From IMG/VR virus record IMGVR_UViG_2921119228_000004, positions 13,876 to 77,875 of that record: 64,000 nucleotides of DNA. One strand, written 5' to 3'. The number at the start of each line of letters is the position of its first letter. Within the stretch, counting starts at the first letter, position 1. A program made the translations under genes and the position numbers. Below the pieces are notes generated by a model. The model saw only the letters and a list, made by a program, of their open reading frames with translations, had not been told where the DNA came from and did not search any database. Origin of the DNA: a virus (taxonomy: Duplodnaviria > Caudoviricetes). Below are positions 7,690 through 59,057 of the stretch, one piece after another.

Positions 7690-8958
7690 CTATTTAGAGA
7701 AATGAGCACAAATAAGCTTAAAATTCGAGATTTCTTCTTTCGAAAGTCCTTCAATCCCCTTTTTCTCTATCTCACGTAAATTTCTCTCAGTAACACTATT
7801 TTCTCCTATTGACGCTTTACTAACTACGACATTAAAATAGTCATAAAAGATGCGTGCTACAATTATCATTTTACTATATCTAAGAATCTCCTGGTCTTTC
7901 ATGAATATTATTAATTTGGCCAAATGATTCTTCGTCTTATGGACATACCGCTGTTCTCTTACGATATTAAACTCCTCCAGTTTCTCTATCAGTTTATGTA
8001 CAACATCCTCGTTATAGCCGTTAAATAGGTTGTAGAACCTATCTTCCTTATATGATGATTTATCGCCACCCTTATCAGAAACATTTGACAGTTCACTTTG
8101 AGAGTAATTCAACGGTTCTTTTTGAGAAACACCCGACGAATCATCAAGAATATCATTTTCACCATAGCTTGATGACCTATCGCTACCCTTATCAGAAACA
8201 TTTGACAGTTCACTTTGAGAGTAATTCAACGGTTCTTTTTGAGAAATATCCAACGAATTATCATGAATATCACTTTCACCATAGCTTGATGATCTATCGC
8301 TACCGTTATCAGAAACATTTGACAGTTCACTTTGAGAGTAATTCAATAGTTCATCTTGAGAATCATCTGACGAATCATCAATAATATCACTTTCACTATA
8401 AATACATCTTTGTACCCCTATCGTATCAGAATGGGGTTTGAAGAACTTTAACCAATAGCAAAAGAACGTACCATGCCTTTTTTGGCAATCAATTAGAACA
8501 TTTCGCAAATTAATATCATATCGTTCAAAAGCTTCTGTGACATCTGAGAAGAAAATTGGTATAACAAACTTTTGAAATACTTTGGAATGAAAAATGGGAT
8601 GATTTAGCTGTATTTCATATAAACGCTGTAATATTTCCTCCGCATAGACCATTCTAGCTTTAGGATCCATCCCTAACAATCGAGATTTTATTGCATCTAC
8701 ATATTTTACACGTAATTTCTCACAATGTTGACCAACCGCAAAAGTTAAACCCAAATTCACACAAGCCTCATTCGATCTATTGTCCGAATCATCAGAGTAT
8801 GCAATATCGTTATTGATATTATTATCAACAGAAACAAACAAATCTTTCCCATCAATGATTTTAGTTCTGGGGTCATAGATATACTCTTCCCCAAATTTAT
8901 GTATAACATCTAGAATATCATCACAATACGATCTTACATTTTCCATAAAAATAATCAA
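7690..8958 (-). CDS. hypothetical protein with three 39-aa Ser/Asp-rich tandem repeats
   Basis: 422-aa ORF between integrase and excisionase. Confidence 0.75.
   Translation of the reverse strand: MIIFMENVRSYCDDILDVIHKFGEEYIYDPRTKIIDGKDLFVSVDNNINNDIAYSDDSDNRSNEACVNLGLTFAVGQHCEKLRVKYVDAIKSRLLGMDPKARMVYAEEILQRLYEIQLNHPIFHSKVFQKFVIPIFFSDVTEAFERYDINLRNVLIDCQKRHGTFFCYWLKFFKPHSDTIGVQRCIYSESDIIDDSSDDSQDELLNYSQSELSNVSDNGSDRSSSYGESDIHDNSLDISQKEPLNYSQSELSNVSDKGSDRSSSYGENDILDDSSGVSQKEPLNYSQSELSNVSDKGGDKSSYKEDRFYNLFNGYNEDVVHKLIEKLEEFNIVREQRYVHKTKNHLAKLIIFMKDQEILRYSKMIIVARIFYDYFNVVVSKASIGENSVTERNLREIEKKGIEGLSKEEISNFKLICAHFSK
8050..8400. repeat. 117-bp coding tandem repeat, about 3 copies
   Basis: acatttgacagttcactttgagagtaattcaa recurs at 8081, 8198 and 8315. 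Confidence 0.9.
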
Positions 8959-12794: not shown

Positions 12795-12869
12795 ATTTTA
12801 TTAAGTTATTGATTAATAACTGCAAATATAATTTATTTGGCGTACATATACACCATTTAATACAGAGAA

Positions 12870-13352
12870 TTATATTTTTGAAGCTATTAAGGCTTCCAAT
12901 TTGTTTATTTCATCCCGTACACTCTGCCTTTGCTGGTGAAGATTCTCTATATCATACGGCATATCAAGCCCGATTAAAGAAGCCTCATAACATTTCGTTA
13001 TACGATAATCACCTATAACGCTGTCATTGCTGGTAAGAGAGGCTTTCAGTTCATCTATCTTATTCCGAACAAGTTTAGCGTTAAATCTTTGCTCGTATTT
13101 ATAGCTTATTTTATCTCCAGCGTCATAAGGTACAATACGAACGCTATAGTATTCAGGACATTGTAATTTAGTATCATCCACAAGCTCTACATTTTTCCAT
13201 CCTAAAGCGGACAACTCAGCTTGTTGCTCCTGGATTGATACTATTCTCGTTTCAATCTCTCCAGTTTCTTCATTTTTAAACTTCTCACTGTATTCCTCTA
13301 AAAATTTAGAAACAAGAGATCCGTTTTCGTCTATATAGCCATATTCAATCAT
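12870..13352 (-). CDS. hypothetical tail-associated protein
   Basis: 160-aa ORF following the large tail protein. Confidence 0.65.
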   Translation of the reverse strand: MIEYGYIDENGSLVSKFLEEYSEKFKNEETGEIETRIVSIQEQQAELSALGWKNVELVDDTKLQCPEYYSVRIVPYDAGDKISYKYEQRFNAKLVRNKIDELKASLTSNDSVIGDYRITKCYEASLIGLDMPYDIENLHQQRQSVRDEINKLEALIASKI

Positions 13353-17378: not shown

Positions 17379-17696
17379 CTAAGTGAATTGATATATCTTA
17401 CCATTTCCGCATTTCATCCCTTTAATCGTAGTGCTGAAAGGGAAAGCGTCTTTGGGGATCTGATCCAAAGTTTTCTTTAAAGAAGCTGCGTTTGTGAAAA
17501 ACTTACCATCCGCACCATTGCTATGTTTAAATTTCACAAGGTATCTTCCTTCACCGTGCGAAGTCTTTACATCTGGAATGAAATCTTCTACAATGATCTC
17601 ACAGTTCAGCACGTCCGAAATAGAAACCTGGCTACAGTTGAACATTTTACGTTCATCTTGTACGGTTACACCTAACTCACTAAACTTTCTCATCAC
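17379..17696 (-). CDS. hypothetical protein in DGR cassette
   Basis: Translationally coupled ORF downstream of RT. Confidence 0.7.
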   Translation of the reverse strand: MMRKFSELGVTVQDERKMFNCSQVSISDVLNCEIIVEDFIPDVKTSHGEGRYLVKFKHSNGADGKFFTNAASLKKTLDQIPKDAFPFSTTIKGMKCGNGKIYQFT

Positions 17697-18070
17697 AATA
17701 TAATATTAAGTTCCTTACAATCGTTATCTATCATTTCTTTGATAGCTTTTCTCTTTTGCAAATATTCCTTGTAATCATTGGTAGCTGATTTTTCAGTGAG
17801 AATACCGAGCTGGGCAGCGTTATAATCATTGATAATTTTGGCTTCTTTATCCGAATTCCACAAATGGGTAATAACTGCCTTTTTTAGCTTATCATTTGTA
17901 ACCATTCCCCAAACAACAACTTCGTTACAAGTCCATTTTGTAGTTTGCCCATTATCTCCAGCTTCTCCAAAATGGTTTTCTACTTGAACTTCCTGAATAT
18001 CCCAACGGTATGTGTAAGAACCATTCCCGTTAGCCTCTAACTTAGAAGGCTTAAAATCGTAGTGTATCAT
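17693..18070 (-). CDS. hypothetical protein in DGR cassette
   Basis: Overlaps the RT stop. Confidence 0.7.
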   Translation of the reverse strand: MIHYDFKPSKLEANGNGSYTYRWDIQEVQVENHFGEAGDNGQTTKWTCNEVVVWGMVTNDKLKKAVITHLWNSDKEAKIINDYNAAQLGILTEKSATNDYKEYLQKRKAIKEMIDNDCKELNIIL

Positions 18071-19205: not shown

Positions 19206-19320
19206 AAATCATAGCTGAGAGCTGACATTCGCATTCGTATTCGAGGGGGTGTTATTCGTATTCGCATAACCGAAGCCTGCATGATCGCCATTATTCGTAT
19301 TACCGCTGAAAAGGACACCC
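19206..19320 (-). ncRNA. DGR template repeat (TR)
   Basis: AAT-rich 115-bp copy of the target gene 3' end; differs from VR1 only at adenines; has an in-frame TGA. Confidence 0.95.
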
Positions 19321-19388: not shown

Positions 19389-20816
19389 TCACGATTCAGG
19401 AATAAAACAAAGCCGAGAGCCGACATCCGCATCCGTAGACGAGGGGGCGCTACGCGTATGCGCACAACCGAAGCCCGCACGATCGCCATCATACGTAGCA
19501 CCGCCGAAAAGGACACCCCTAAGAGCGTTAGATCCTATATTGGTATAGAAGTAATCACACCAATAGGTAGTAGATCCACCTCCGACTACAGAAGCAATCA
19601 AATCGCCAAATTCACCGAAAATCATTTCTTTTGCATAACCTTCTGCACGTGCAGCCAATCCTCTAAGCGTATAGCCTGTGTAGTTACTATCGTTGTATTT
19701 AGAAGGATCATCGCAAACATACACTTTAGAAGTTCCTCCGTCTGAATTGGTTTTCACTTCTATATTTACTCCATCCGTCCATTTCCAGACGTGCCCGAAG
19801 GGATTTTCAATACCACGATAGCGAGGTACGGTAAATACTTTGCTGTTTTCTCCTTCTGCTTTCTCTAAAGTGTAAGCTACTTCACCAGAAGCATTTCCCA
19901 ATTCATCACTCGTACCGCAAGGAATAATAGGATAATAACCACTAAAATTGTTCCACTTTGTACCATCCCATGTAGTTACACCATTACCCAAACCACCCTG
20001 AGCATACCCGTTGCTATCTTTCTGGGCATTGAAAGCCAACTGGCAGTTAAGGTTTCCATACTCTATGTAATAGAGCCATGCCAAAGTGATATAAGCGTTA
20101 TAGTCCATGCAGTTCCATTGCGTACCAGCCCCCCTTTTACGAGCAGCAGCACGAAAGTTTGTTCTACTCGTAGATGTAGCTGGCTTGCCTAATTGGGATT
20201 TAGGCAAAGCATCCCAATCTGCTTGGTTGTTACCACCTCTGTAATCAGCCGAAGTATTTACTACAGAAGCCAGTTTACCAGTGCTACGTTGGATTGTTGC
20301 CTCATAAGCCGAGATATAGCATTTCTTTACGAAATGATAACCAGGTATCGGGTATTCACTGATTCGTACACCTCTTTTGTTTCCATTGGTATAAAATCTT
20401 CTCCAGTGAGCAGGGATTTCCACCATAACCATACCATTGGAACCATCCCTTTTATGCGCTTTCCAGTTGGTAGGGTTTAGGTATTCAATAACCTTGCCTT
20501 CATCTGATAGCAAACACCCTTTCATCTTGCTTTGAATTGGCAATGTTTTATGCAGTGTCATATTGCCAGTACGGGTAAGAACCGAAGAAGATACTGTTAC
20601 ATCTAATTCTACGCCATAACTACATTGATCCTCTGCATAAGGTAGCATAGCAGCCAGACCAGCTTGTTTGCTTTCTCCGCTTTTATCCAATACCTCAGTT
20701 GTGAGGTCAAAAGGGTTACTGCTGTCTGCTACTGGTAATTCATTTAATCTTTTGCCATTGTCGTAAGCTGTAATAATCTTTTTTACTTTAGCTTCCTCTT
20801 CTGCTGTAAGTGCCAT
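19389..20816 (-). CDS. DGR target 1: tail/adhesin protein with C-terminal C-type-lectin-like variable domain
   Basis: RGIENPFGHVWKW and C-terminal GVLFGG...VGSRLCF containing VR1. Confidence 0.9.
   Translation of the reverse strand: MALTAEEEAKVKKIITAYDNGKRLNELPVADSSNPFDLTTEVLDKSGESKQAGLAAMLPYAEDQCSYGVELDVTVSSSVLTRTGNMTLHKTLPIQSKMKGCLLSDEGKVIEYLNPTNWKAHKRDGSNGMVMVEIPAHWRRFYTNGNKRGVRISEYPIPGYHFVKKCYISAYEATIQRSTGKLASVVNTSADYRGGNNQADWDALPKSQLGKPATSTSRTNFRAAARKRGAGTQWNCMDYNAYITLAWLYYIEYGNLNCQLAFNAQKDSNGYAQGGLGNGVTTWDGTKWNNFSGYYPIIPCGTSDELGNASGEVAYTLEKAEGENSKVFTVPRYRGIENPFGHVWKWTDGVNIEVKTNSDGGTSKVYVCDDPSKYNDSNYTGYTLRGLAARAEGYAKEMIFGEFGDLIASVVGGGSTTYWCDYFYTNIGSNALRGVLFGGATYDGDRAGFGCAHTRSAPSSTDADVGSRLCFIPES
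19404..19518 (-). repeat. DGR variable repeat VR1
   Basis: 21 mismatches to TR in 115 bp, all at TR adenines (manual alignment). Confidence 0.95.
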
Positions 20817-33115: not shown

Positions 33116-33703
33116 TTATTTAACAATAATTGATTCCAGCAACGCATCAGAAGCCTCTTCAACATTCTTTGCGTTTGCTGTTTTTACACTCTCTGGATCT
33201 TCCGAAATAAGGTTTTGAGTTATTAAGTCTTGTTTCAGACCAGCGCAATAAGCATCTGGATCCTCTTCATCAGGAATAACCAAACCTTTTCTTCTCCATT
33301 CGGGAATACCATGCTTGTTAAGAGCTGCTTGAACGGCTGTTTCACGATCTTTCTTAGCTTGCTCTTGTTTCATTTTATCCATTTCCGCTTGAAGTTCGGA
33401 GATCCGTTTGTTTGGATCGTTATCAGGTTCCTTTGGCTCCTTCGGTTCTTTAGGTTCTTTGGGTTCCTTCGGTTCTTTTGGCTCCTTTGGTTCCTTCGCT
33501 TTGTTAGCCCACCTGGTAGCTTCTCCTTGACTTTCTTTTGCCACATCCGCTATTTGGTTTGCTACTTTTTCGATTTCCGCTTCATCAGTAGAATCATCCT
33601 CAATGCTGCCACCCATTTTTTCGGTTATCGCAGTAAGGTACTTCTCTGATAAACCAGTGTCCTTACATAAGTCTTTGACTTTCTTAAAGAGTGTCTTATT
33701 CAT
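33116..33703 (-). CDS. capsid scaffolding protein with (KEP)7 tract
   Basis: Acidic coiled-coil protein first in head operon; imperfect 9-bp repeats ~33426-33498. Confidence 0.7.
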   Translation of the reverse strand: MNKTLFKKVKDLCKDTGLSEKYLTAITEKMGGSIEDDSTDEAEIEKVANQIADVAKESQGEATRWANKAKEPKEPKEPKEPKEPKEPKEPKEPDNDPNKRISELQAEMDKMKQEQAKKDRETAVQAALNKHGIPEWRRKGLVIPDEEDPDAYCAGLKQDLITQNLISEDPESVKTANAKNVEEASDALLESIIVK

Positions 33704-48687: not shown

Positions 48688-48791
48688 TCCGTTGTTTATT
48701 CGTTGTTTTTTGGCGTATATATACACCAATTAAGGAAAGAAAAAATCAGATAGGAACTCCCACCTGATTAATTCTTTACCTGGTTAATTTA

Positions 48792-50776: not shown

Positions 50777-51199
50777 TTAAACCTCCTTTTCAAATTCAGG
50801 AATACGGGCAATCTTTCTGAAAGCCTCCACAAAGCGCATCAACAGATAAAGTTTCCGCTTCCCTAAAAACATAACCTTATGCCCGTCCGTCATTCTGCCT
50901 ACAGCATAAAATTTTCCTCTATAATGCAATGGCAACGGGAATTTATCATATACATAGATACAACCGTTCTCTATACTCGTGATCGTTGCCACCCTATTAA
51001 ACTTACCATCCAGATATACGGTAATAGATTTACCTGGTGTAATCGGATCATACGGTAGGAAAAGATTTGCAAAGTGCATAGCGGTAATGAATACCGCTAA
51101 AGCACCTGCTACTATAAAGATAGTTGTCGTAATAGTCATAATATCAATGTTATCAATTAATGCAAAGATATAAATTTTGGTGTATATATACACCAACAA
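50777..51199 (-). CDS. hypothetical membrane-anchored protein
   Basis: N-terminal TM; real start probably at the internal MTIT. Confidence 0.55.
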   Translation of the reverse strand: MLVYIYTKIYIFALIDNIDIMTITTTIFIVAGALAVFITAMHFANLFLPYDPITPGKSITVYLDGKFNRVATITSIENGCIYVYDKFPLPLHYRGKFYAVGRMTDGHKVMFLGKRKLYLLMRFVEAFRKIARIPEFEKEV

Positions 51200-51213
51200 A
51201 GAGCAAAAAACAT

Positions 51214-51654
51214 CTAAAAGCCAAATACTAACATGGCAGCATCCCTACTATGCTCGTTGGTTTGCTTTTTCCATCCCGTAAGCTGCTTGAAATATTCCTG
51301 GCTCATCTTTGTTATATTCCGTTTAGGAGCAACCATTTCAAACTCAACACCAAGTTCGGTAAGGTAATCTTCCCAAATTGTAGCATCACGTTTTACGGAT
51401 CCTACACCTTGTAGCCTCTTCCGTTCCTCTTCACGTGTCATTCTCTCTGTACCAAACCAGGTGCGTTGTCGTGGATCTTCCACTCTTACTATGATTTTAT
51501 CGCCTACACCCGTCTTTTGCATATCCGCATAAGACTGAACAACCGCCATAGCCCTATGAATAGGCATTTGTTTTACCATTTCCAAAGAACGCTTTCGGTT
51601 ATCCCAGATAGCAATCCCGGTATGTACACCTGTATCAATCCCTATATAGATCAT
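51214..51654 (-). CDS. RuvC-like Holliday junction resolvase/endonuclease
   Basis: YIGIDTG, RVEDPR, EHSRDAA acidic RNase H-fold residues. Confidence 0.75.
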   Translation of the reverse strand: MIYIGIDTGVHTGIAIWDNRKRSLEMVKQMPIHRAMAVVQSYADMQKTGVGDKIIVRVEDPRQRTWFGTERMTREEERKRLQGVGSVKRDATIWEDYLTELGVEFEMVAPKRNITKMSQEYFKQLTGWKKQTNEHSRDAAMLVFGF

Positions 51655-57679: not shown

Positions 57680-58108
57680 TTAATTATCTGTGCCAGTCAA
57701 GCGCACTGCCATTTGAATTGTTTTCTGCCTTTCTTCCGGCTTCATAGGTCTTTCCTCCAGCAAATAACCGTCTGGCGTATAGTAACCTACTCTTCCTTCG
57801 TCTTGATCTATGAACTTGTAGCACTCACCTTTAATGTACTCACCGCCTTTTCTCAAATCATCAAGCATTTTTCCGATCCGTTCTTGCAGTGGCTTCATTT
57901 TTCCTTTGAAGTCAGCTTTAACTACATCAAAATTTTCTGTCAGTTCTTGCATCTGTATCTGAATTTCTACAAGGTTAGCTCGAAGCTCATTAGTTTCTTC
58001 CTGAGAGAACTTTGAGAGATAACTTTTCTCTACGACCTCATCGCAGCTATCACGTAAAATTTGTGCTCTTTGCTCCACTGGAGTATCAGCCAACATTATA
58101 TCTTTCAT
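57680..58108 (-). CDS. hypothetical protein
   Basis: 142-aa coiled-coil ORF. Confidence 0.75.
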   Translation of the reverse strand: MKDIMLADTPVEQRAQILRDSCDEVVEKSYLSKFSQEETNELRANLVEIQIQMQELTENFDVVKADFKGKMKPLQERIGKMLDDLRKGGEYIKGECYKFIDQDEGRVGYYTPDGYLLEERPMKPEERQKTIQMAVRLTGTDN

Positions 58109-58479
58109 TGCAAAATAAGTTTGATTATTAATGAATTGAAGTCTATTTGAAAGTGGTACTTATTCAAGAGAACAAACAGTAAGATTGCGATTCCTAATAT
58201 GTTATCTATAATTCTCCATGTAAACCACTTCTTAGGGATAAGGCTTAAAACAATCAATGCAAGAAAACCTATCCATTGCGAGCTTATTAAACCTATGAAG
58301 CACAATATAAGGTAGATCCAGTTGCACATTCTCCAAACAGCGAAAACCGGGCTTATCTCAGTGAGATCGTTTTTGTCCTTATACTTTTCCACAGCAGCGA
58401 AAACTTTTTTGCAAGCTGCCAAATTCAGCACTTCAAAGAAAAGGCAGAAGGCTATCAGTATATAAAATATTGTTGTCAT
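58105..58479 (-). CDS. hypothetical membrane protein
   Basis: Several TM helices. Confidence 0.7.
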   Translation of the reverse strand: MTTIFYILIAFCLFFEVLNLAACKKVFAAVEKYKDKNDLTEISPVFAVWRMCNWIYLILCFIGLISSQWIGFLALIVLSLIPKKWFTWRIIDNILGIAILLFVLLNKYHFQIDFNSLIIKLILQ

Positions 58480-59057
58480 TCTTGCACCTTCTTTACATTA
58501 AACATCAAATAATCAAACCACAATTCAATGAATTGCTGCCCGAAATACTTTGCTTTCTCTCTTGATTCTTGCCAAAGCCGAGAGCCGACATGCGCATGCG
58601 TAGTCGAGGGGGCGTTACGCGCATACGCATAACCGAAGCCCGCAAGATTGTTTAGAGCGTCAATAATTGGAATATACACAAGCCCTTCTGTTTCTTTGAT
58701 TTCTCTCTCAGTCCACAAAGCAAACCAGGGGAAATAGAAACGGCTGCTACCGCTTGCATCCGGTTTAGGCTGGTAATTCTTACCCCACAAAGCCCGGCTG
58801 ATTGTTTCAAGTTTGATTAAGGCAATAATCCCTTTTCTTACTCCAGCAGAACGCAAAGCCTTCTCATCAATAGGGGAACACTTTAAAGCAGCACACGCAT
58901 CCTCATAACTTCGGATTGTCGTGTAATCATCAAGGGTAGGGGTTGGTTTCTTTTCACCTTTGCAGAACAAGGCTACCAACACGTTTTTCACTTCTTCACT
59001 TTTAGCAACGTCTAAAGCTGCCTTTACTTCAATCTCAGTAATTTCAATTACTTTCAT
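58476..59057 (-). CDS. DGR target 2: small early-region protein carrying a remote variable repeat
   Basis: Contains LAGFGYAYARNAPSTTHAHVGSRLW matching TR. Confidence 0.88.
   Translation of the reverse strand: MKVIEITEIEVKAALDVAKSEEVKNVLVALFCKGEKKPTPTLDDYTTIRSYEDACAALKCSPIDEKALRSAGVRKGIIALIKLETISRALWGKNYQPKPDASGSSRFYFPWFALWTEREIKETEGLVYIPIIDALNNLAGFGYAYARNAPSTTHAHVGSRLWQESREKAKYFGQQFIELWFDYLMFNVKKVQE
58572..58648 (-). repeat. remote DGR variable repeat VR2
   Basis: 77 bp aligned to TR 19209-19285, 14 mismatches, all at TR adenines. Confidence 0.9.

Follow-up and report, generated by a model that had tools for sequence, protein, structure and literature searches.

Phage DGRs are usually explained as receptor-switching devices. 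The 64,000-nucleotide stretch of viral DNA analysed here, referred to throughout as the window, raises the question of whether one such element may also rewrite a protein that acts inside the cell. The window carries a DGR cassette next to a tail protein gene and, approximately 39.3 kb from the template repeat (TR), a gene encoding a small protein in which a second segment resembles the template. The source phage is a gut Bacteroidales prophage and is temperate, as indicated by its IMG/VR provirus class. Two things had to be established: whether the remote gene is a target of the DGR at all, and what its product might do.

Remote second targets have precedents. Benler et al. (2021, Microbiome 9:78; PMC8008677) described two variable repeats (VRs) in Quimbyvirus, the second in a non-structural protein, 'ORF 80/84', near methyltransferases and a tRNA ligase, and considered it without precedent for hypervariable targets to be nested in defence-related genes. 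Dahlman et al. (2025, Nature 647:698; PMC12629997), who cite Benler et al. for LoVEphage, reported four inducible prophage species in which a second, distal VR lies near counter-defence genes; no function or structure was given there for the double-VR targets, while literature linking bacterial DGRs to defence-like systems was cited. In the Roseburia phage Shimadzu (Cornuault 2019, bioRxiv 10.1101/575076), which has one reverse transcriptase (RT) and one TR, VR1 belongs to a tail gene and VR2 to orf43/44, whose function is unknown. Virion reads showed that both VRs are diversified, and the VR2 alleles were more diverse and under weaker selection than those of VR1 during infection. The sequence-only reading of the window, which set the remote gene apart from the receptor-binding targets classically diversified by phages, implied that such a target is new. 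This part of it is not supported, because the same protein family had already been reported as a non-structural DGR target (PMC8008677; cf. PMC12629997 and 10.1101/575076).

The DGR cassette

The elements of the DGR are listed in Table 1; all of them, including the gene that contains VR2, are on the minus strand.

Table 1. Features of the DGR and its two targets, in window coordinates
Feature	Position	Strand	Basis and remarks
Source record, 77.9 kb	window = bases 13876-77875 of the record		IMG/VR class provirus; CheckV rating complete
DGR reverse transcriptase, 346 aa	18051..19091	-	Pfam RVT_1, E 6e-18; phrog_1423, E 7e-129
Template repeat (TR), 115 nt	19206..19320	-	directly upstream of the RT gene; A-rich copy; repeat family D2
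VR1 target, 475-aa tail protein	19389..20816	-	phrog_5302 'tail protein', E 6e-157; 3216 homologues
VR1, cassette-proximal variable repeat	19404..19518	-	C-terminus of the tail protein
Second DGR variable protein gene, 193 aa, family phrog_11581	58476..59057	-	ORF; phrog_11581 match
VR2, remote variable repeat, codons 137-162	58572..58648	-	ungapped alignment to TR 19209-19285
IMH-like 3' end of VR2, 17 nt	58573..58589	-	identical to the VR1 3' end, differs from TR

The translation of the RT gene reads IGNYLSQ and YADD, in agreement with the [ILV]GxxxSQ and YxDD motifs of DGR-type reverse transcriptases. VR1 differs from TR at 21 of 115 positions and every one of the 21 is a TR adenine, an outcome with a chance probability of 8e-16. 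When the whole 77.9-kb provirus was searched with TR, only three copies were recovered, TR itself, VR1 and VR2, the last with an E value of 1e-17. No match to the Avd family (PF05635) was found anywhere in the record. Avd is not universal among DGRs, and with none recognised here, the two small ORFs that immediately follow the RT gene (17379-18070, minus strand; phrog_11557 and phrog_19665), the first of which overlaps the end of the RT gene, are candidate accessory factors. A megablast search of GenBank phages with the cassette gave no match.

A remote variable repeat

The alignment of VR2 with TR confirmed what had been read from the letters of the sequence, namely a gapless match over 77 nucleotides with 14 mismatches, all at TR adenines. 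The changes comprise seven A>G, four A>C and three A>T. The corresponding TR stretch has 23 adenines among its 77 bases, so that the probability of all 14 mismatches falling on adenines by chance is 9.7e-10. VR2 corresponds only to the 3' 77 nt of the 115-nt TR. The two VRs of the window differ from one another at nine positions, all of them in TR-adenine columns, as had also been stated; one of the nine lies at the very end of the homology, in its last column. Where VR1 reads TGT and AGC, VR2 retains the TAT and AAC of TR, and the reverse case, with VR1 like TR and VR2 mutated, was also seen.

In frame, TR supplies six AAY codons and several codons with a single adenine, all within codons 143-157. 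Adenine mutagenesis of this segment gives approximately 3e9 possible peptide variants and no stop codon can be reached. As the homology ends at codon 162 of 193, there are 31 residues after VR2 and not about 25, as first estimated. The protein was said to have no signal peptide, and a hydropathy scan likewise gave no sign of a membrane-spanning or signal-like segment; no stretch of 19 residues scored above 1.15 on the Kyte-Doolittle scale, indicating a soluble protein.

There is hardly any room for doubt that the single DGR of this prophage has the 193-aa gene as a second, remote target.

Variation of VR2 in natural populations

Natural variation was examined at the DNA level in 18 near-identical sequences, the window and 17 IMG/VR loci. 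Each of the 18 has its own VR2 allele. Variation was found in 18 of the 23 TR-adenine columns but in only one of the 54 other columns (Fisher p 3.6e-12), which is the adenine-confined polymorphism among homologous prophages that had been proposed as a check on the sequence-only reading. Among homologues more than 85% identical, the protein is nearly invariant save for residues 143, 145-148 and 152-156. An isolate-derived contig that spans the gene carries a further VR2 allele; of the 15 positions at which it differs, 10 fall within VR2. The two sites are of the same order in their natural diversity, with 27,402 VR2 protein sequences and 21,623 VR1 protein sequences in the respective 90%-identity clusters. 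Judged from this pattern of sequence variation, VR2 is an active target in natural populations.

The evidence from public runs consisted of Logan contigs (24 runs); four were examined and two gave no result. A metatranscriptome contig that was considered as evidence of expression was rejected, as it proved to be a cross-mapping VR1 of another phage. An assembly artefact was also considered and rejected, because 25 IMG/VR loci and many isolate runs contain the gene together with its unique flanks.

Origin of the VR2 alleles

TR, VR1 and VR2 were recovered together in seven genomes. TR is identical in four of these, whose VR1 and VR2 alleles all differ. In the other three, TR has a G at one former adenine site and both VRs carry G at the same site, which indicates that VR2 tracks its own template. 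The distance between VR1 and VR2 over the core positions has a mean of 8.4 within a genome compared with 8.8 (sd 2.1) between genomes (n = 7). Because the two values are about the same, VR1 and VR2 are rewritten independently of each other, and the variation does not stem from gene conversion between them. The sequence-only reading had likewise favoured independent retrohoming over a simple copy of VR1.

One relative (G008, loci L037 / L067) departs from the others in that its VR1 and VR2 differ at only three core positions, compared with a range of 5-14 between genomes; the similarity may reflect a recent conversion event or homing of both repeats from one cDNA.

Two other accounts of the VR2 alleles were weighed against direct retrohoming of cDNA. 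Variation of VR2 through recombination with VR1 is favoured by the 77 nucleotides and the identical 3' end that the repeats have in common, and by the outlying relative with its three core differences. Across the seven genomes, however, same-genome pairs are no closer than cross-genome pairs, and in the window the repeats differ at nine TR-adenine positions, each being TR-like where the other is mutated. Gene conversion was rejected on the distance test and is regarded as highly unlikely. The other account holds that VR2 is a fossil, an old copy of part of VR1 or TR that is no longer subject to rewriting by the DGR. The match of VR2 in the window lineage to just the 3' 77 nt of the 115-nt TR could be read in this way, and the public-run evidence on VR2 comes from contigs rather than raw reads. 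Against it, all 18 near-identical relatives have different VR2 alleles, with 18 of 23 TR-adenine columns changed as opposed to one of 54 others, four of the seven TRs recovered are identical, and the IMH-like end of VR2 is intact. A fossil is scarcely credible in the face of these observations. Taken as a whole, the evidence makes a second, remote target of the single DGR very probably the best explanation of the 193-aa gene.

The IMH-like end and a proposed mechanism

The 3' ends of VR1 and VR2 both read GTCGGCTCTCGGCTTTG, while that of TR reads GTCAGCTCTCAGCTATG. Of the positions that distinguish the VRs from TR in this segment, the last two are invariant in all 18 relatives and the first varies once. 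In both Versailles and LoVEphage, the 3' end is likewise common to the two VRs and two positions removed from TR. By analogy with known DGRs, the shared 17-nt end of the VRs would act as the IMH and its counterpart in TR as the IMH*. At the other end, the homology between VR2 and TR stops in an A-poor block, GGCTTCGGTT, which suggests that only the 3' 77 nt of TR is transferable in the window lineage.

No significant hairpin was detected downstream of the repeats. The DNA folds of the 106 nt past VR1 and past VR2 were no more stable than those of shuffled sequences (z = 0.21 each), and the fold following TR was also no better than shuffles. With neither Avd nor a significant hairpin, the cis and trans requirements of BPP-1 are not all visible here. 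Some 50 nt beyond VR2 lies a palindrome, CAATTC-N3-GAATTG, that seemed at first to be conserved between the window and LoVEphage. It was rejected as an element, since it is broken without compensation across 16 family members and is a by-product of the codons for QFxEL (QFIEL in the window).

On the analogy of BPP-1, the following course of events is proposed. The TR RNA would be made next to the RT, at 18-19.3 kb, and reverse-transcribed with misincorporation opposite adenines. The resulting cDNA would replace the adjacent VR1 in the tail protein gene and also VR2, 39 kb away. Targeting would depend on the 17-nt IMH-like 3' end, which VR1 and VR2 have in common and TR lacks, and the 5' junction at VR2 would be resolved in the A-poor block GGCTTCGGTT. 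The expected outcome would be some 3e9 peptide variants displayed on an otherwise strongly conserved scaffold.

The protein family

The 193-aa protein matches phrog_11581 over its full length (E 1.2e-77; profile positions 1-200 of 200). A protein search returned 2412 homologues, and a sensitive search of 1.8 billion cluster representatives gave 411 clusters, mostly of 150-220 aa. The GenBank phages with a member of the family are Bacteroides phage Versailles (53% identity) and LoVEphage with its relatives (36-38%). In eight of the nine lineages tested, the family member matches a TR of its own phage, with changes almost exclusively at template adenines. Six further IMG/VR phages with a member were examined and five of them match their own TR; the changes were confined to adenines in three, and each of the remaining two has one additional change at another base. 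Six records with a family member are at least 92% complete, and every one of them also encodes an RT. The layout common to the family is an internal VR followed by conserved C-terminal helices (YFGxQFxELW). These observations establish that divergent Bacteroidota phages share this conserved target family, in which each member follows the template of its own phage.

Several members depart from this description. In one phage (G006, loci L048 / L062), the region near the RT contains two copies matched by the family member, neither of which is A-rich, and the changes are not adenine-specific; either its TR has decayed or the true TR lies elsewhere. In a distant branch of the family, the segment equivalent to the VR is identical in four loci (L050, L051, L052 and L056), and neither an RT nor a second copy was found in the three records searched, which are only 54-77% complete. 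This may be a branch without diversification, and its invariance suggests that the scaffold may have a function for which diversification is not needed. Ten longer members (237-340 aa) gave no informative Pfam domain. A member 72% identical to the window protein lies on an 8-kb contig (CAAFQL010000303.1) of a metagenome-assembled genome labelled Ruminococcaceae; the label is probably a binning error, as all other hosts are Bacteroidales.

The predicted fold

An AlphaFold2 model of the 193-aa protein, calculated with 63 diverse members of the family, had a pLDDT of 83.5 and a pTM of 0.73. The model comprises a well-defined helical N-terminal half, three strands, a loop containing the VR with pLDDT values of 53-61, and two confidently predicted C-terminal helices. 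No match was found among solved structures (Foldseek, best E 0.19; VIA-align wide, best Z 2.8), and the only structural matches were uncharacterised phage proteins in BFVD, some from crAss-like viruses. A search of the ESM Atlas returned only the viral clusters of the protein itself.

The C-type lectin (CLec) fold is that of DGR variable proteins of the Mtd / TvpA type. CLec domains were reported by Benler et al. (2021; PMC8008677) on the basis of HHpred, which would make the scaffold a minimal C-type lectin, and a C-type-lectin-like fold had been anticipated for this protein. None of the 63 members matched the CLec-type Pfam families FGE-sulfatase or DUF1566, and no sequence link to a solved structure was found for either the VR1 target or the VR2 target. 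The model made as a control for the CLec fold, of the C-terminal 226 aa of the VR1 target, had a pLDDT of 44 and was too poor for a fold search. Comparison of the profile of the protein with that of the VR1 target of the same phage by hhalign gave a probability of 97% over 85 columns, extending approximately 35 residues upstream of the VR. This similarity, the sole sequence hint of a CLec fold that emerged, may reflect the shared template only.

Genomic context

The gene is embedded in an operon that encodes, in order, an SbcC-like protein, RecT, a metallo-hydrolase, phrog_2113, NinB, a 54-aa ORF, the VR2 protein, a membrane ORF, phrog_12688, phrog_11501, a replisome organizer and a DnaC-like loader. 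The annotation agrees with the earlier placement of the gene among NinB, RecT and replication genes. The start of the membrane ORF overlaps the end of the VR2 gene by 4 nt (ATGA).

The membrane ORF (58105-58479, minus strand) encodes 124 aa with about three or four hydrophobic segments. It has no match in Pfam, PHROG or NCBIfam and is absent at this position in Versailles.

A distant member of the family is located between a gene for a 305-aa protein of unknown function and a YqaJ exonuclease gene, followed by helicase and primase genes, which shows that an early recombination and replication position is recurrent. In none of the lineages examined is the gene near the structural genes, which lie far from it; it is invariably located in blocks of early recombination, replication or methyltransferase genes.

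Repeats of other kinds occur in the window. A motif of about 40 nt with a GGTGTATATATACACC-like palindrome is present in three copies at intergenic-looking positions (12835-12874, 48708-48747 and 51175-51214) and is a candidate operator or regulatory site. A 117-nt unit occurs in three tandem copies, 87-100% identical, at 8053-8403. Seven overlapping GGTTCCTTT-like copies with a 9-nt period at 33426-33510 probably encode a three-residue peptide repeat on one strand.

Possible functions of the VR2 protein

The position of the gene suggests that its product is not a virion protein. To go by the gene position, the solubility of the protein and analogy, we tentatively consider that it might be a soluble, early-expressed variable binder in the infected cell or lysogen, for which a role in phage-host or phage-phage conflict would be the likeliest. 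A variable host defence or nuclease component could serve as an example of what is bound.

Lambda and P22 keep inhibitors of the host RecBCD nuclease, Gam and Abc, in their recombination operons. A more specific conjecture is that the phrog_11581 proteins are dedicated, DGR-diversified intracellular binders, built on a scaffold other than the canonical CLec fold, that neutralise variable host nucleases or defence systems and would thus be the hypermutable counterpart of lambda Gam and P22 Abc. In this specific form the proposal is rather unlikely.

The main functional rivals are a virion-associated protein and a protein that serves the lysogen, and we consider the two about equally improbable. 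A minor tail-tip component, or a protein ejected with the virion, would put VR2 in the service of adsorption or entry. The VR2 segment does derive from the same TR as the VR of the tail protein, the 97% profile match to that protein over 85 columns reaches about 35 residues upstream of the VR, and the Versailles homologue is annotated 'tail protein'. That label, however, apparently comes from an HHpred match on PHROGs only, owing to the similarity of the VRs. In every lineage examined the gene lies in early or methyltransferase blocks, distant from the structural genes, the VR1 and VR2 alleles are uncorrelated, and in Shimadzu selection on VR2 during infection was weaker than that on VR1 (10.1101/575076), all of which argues against a part in adsorption. 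A protein working for the lysogen, for instance a variable protein that is made by the prophage and senses or blocks superinfecting phages, would suit a temperate phage (IMG/VR provirus) and the 4-nt overlap of the gene with a downstream gene whose product has several predicted membrane-spanning segments; bacterial DGRs have, moreover, been tied to defence-like systems (literature cited in PMC12629997). Yet the gene is part of a lytic early operon with RecT and NinB, outside the immunity and moron regions, and the membrane ORF is missing at this position in Versailles. Of these readings, the early-expressed binder described above is tentatively preferred.

The conservation of a small, soluble second target encoded in an early region suggests that hypermutation in these phages extends to an intracellular protein. 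If this is true, it would represent a rare case of programmed diversification in intracellular conflict. The idea has been in the literature since 2019-2021 and the present locus is another well-supported example. What is added here is the conservation of the family, with each member tracking its own template, the independence of VR1 and VR2, the finding of no solved structural relative, and one invariant branch. The question of the ligand can be tested in cultivable Bacteroides phages such as Versailles and LoVEphage.

Comparison with known systems

The window DGR resembles the mtd-avd-TR-brt system of BPP-1 in the adenine-specific transfer from TR to VR, in the SQ motif and YADD of the RT, and in the IMH/IMH*-like difference between the 3' ends of VR and TR. 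In BPP-1, by contrast, only the tail-fibre protein Mtd is targeted, and its VR lies at the extreme C-terminus; BPP-1 also possesses Avd and a hairpin following the VR, whereas neither was detected in the window. Shimadzu is closer in design, since a single RT and TR serve a VR in a tail gene together with one in a functionally uncharacterised gene, but its host, unlike that of the window phage, belongs to the Firmicutes.

The LoVEphage protein (MW660583, 33613-34197) is 37-38% identical to the window protein over 96% of the query. It has the VR at the same place and the conserved C-terminal tail, is non-structural, and its gene is remote from the RT cassette; compared with its own TR there are 19 changes at adenines and one other. 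The neighbouring genes encode methyltransferases and RtcB, which fits the description given by Benler et al. (PMC8008677). The differences are that the window gene is located in a RecT/NinB/replication operon, whereas those of LoVEphage and Quimbyvirus are in a methyltransferase/tRNA-ligase island, that the RT is one intact ORF in the window but is split over three frames in LoVEphage and Quimbyvirus, and that VR2 comprises 77 nt, the 3' part of TR, in the window as opposed to about 113 nt in LoVEphage.

The product of the Versailles gene WAK79127 (ON453897), annotated 'tail protein', is 53% identical to the window protein over 97% of the query. Apparently no DGR target is annotated at this homologue in the Versailles record, but it differs from its own TR by 15 changes at adenines and one in the IMH-like end. 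Its VR2 spans the whole TR, approximately 100 nt, and no membrane ORF follows the gene. The synteny is otherwise that of the window, with SbcC, RecT, the hydrolase, NinB, a small ORF, the homologue, phrog_12688, phrog_11501 and the replisome organizer in the same order.
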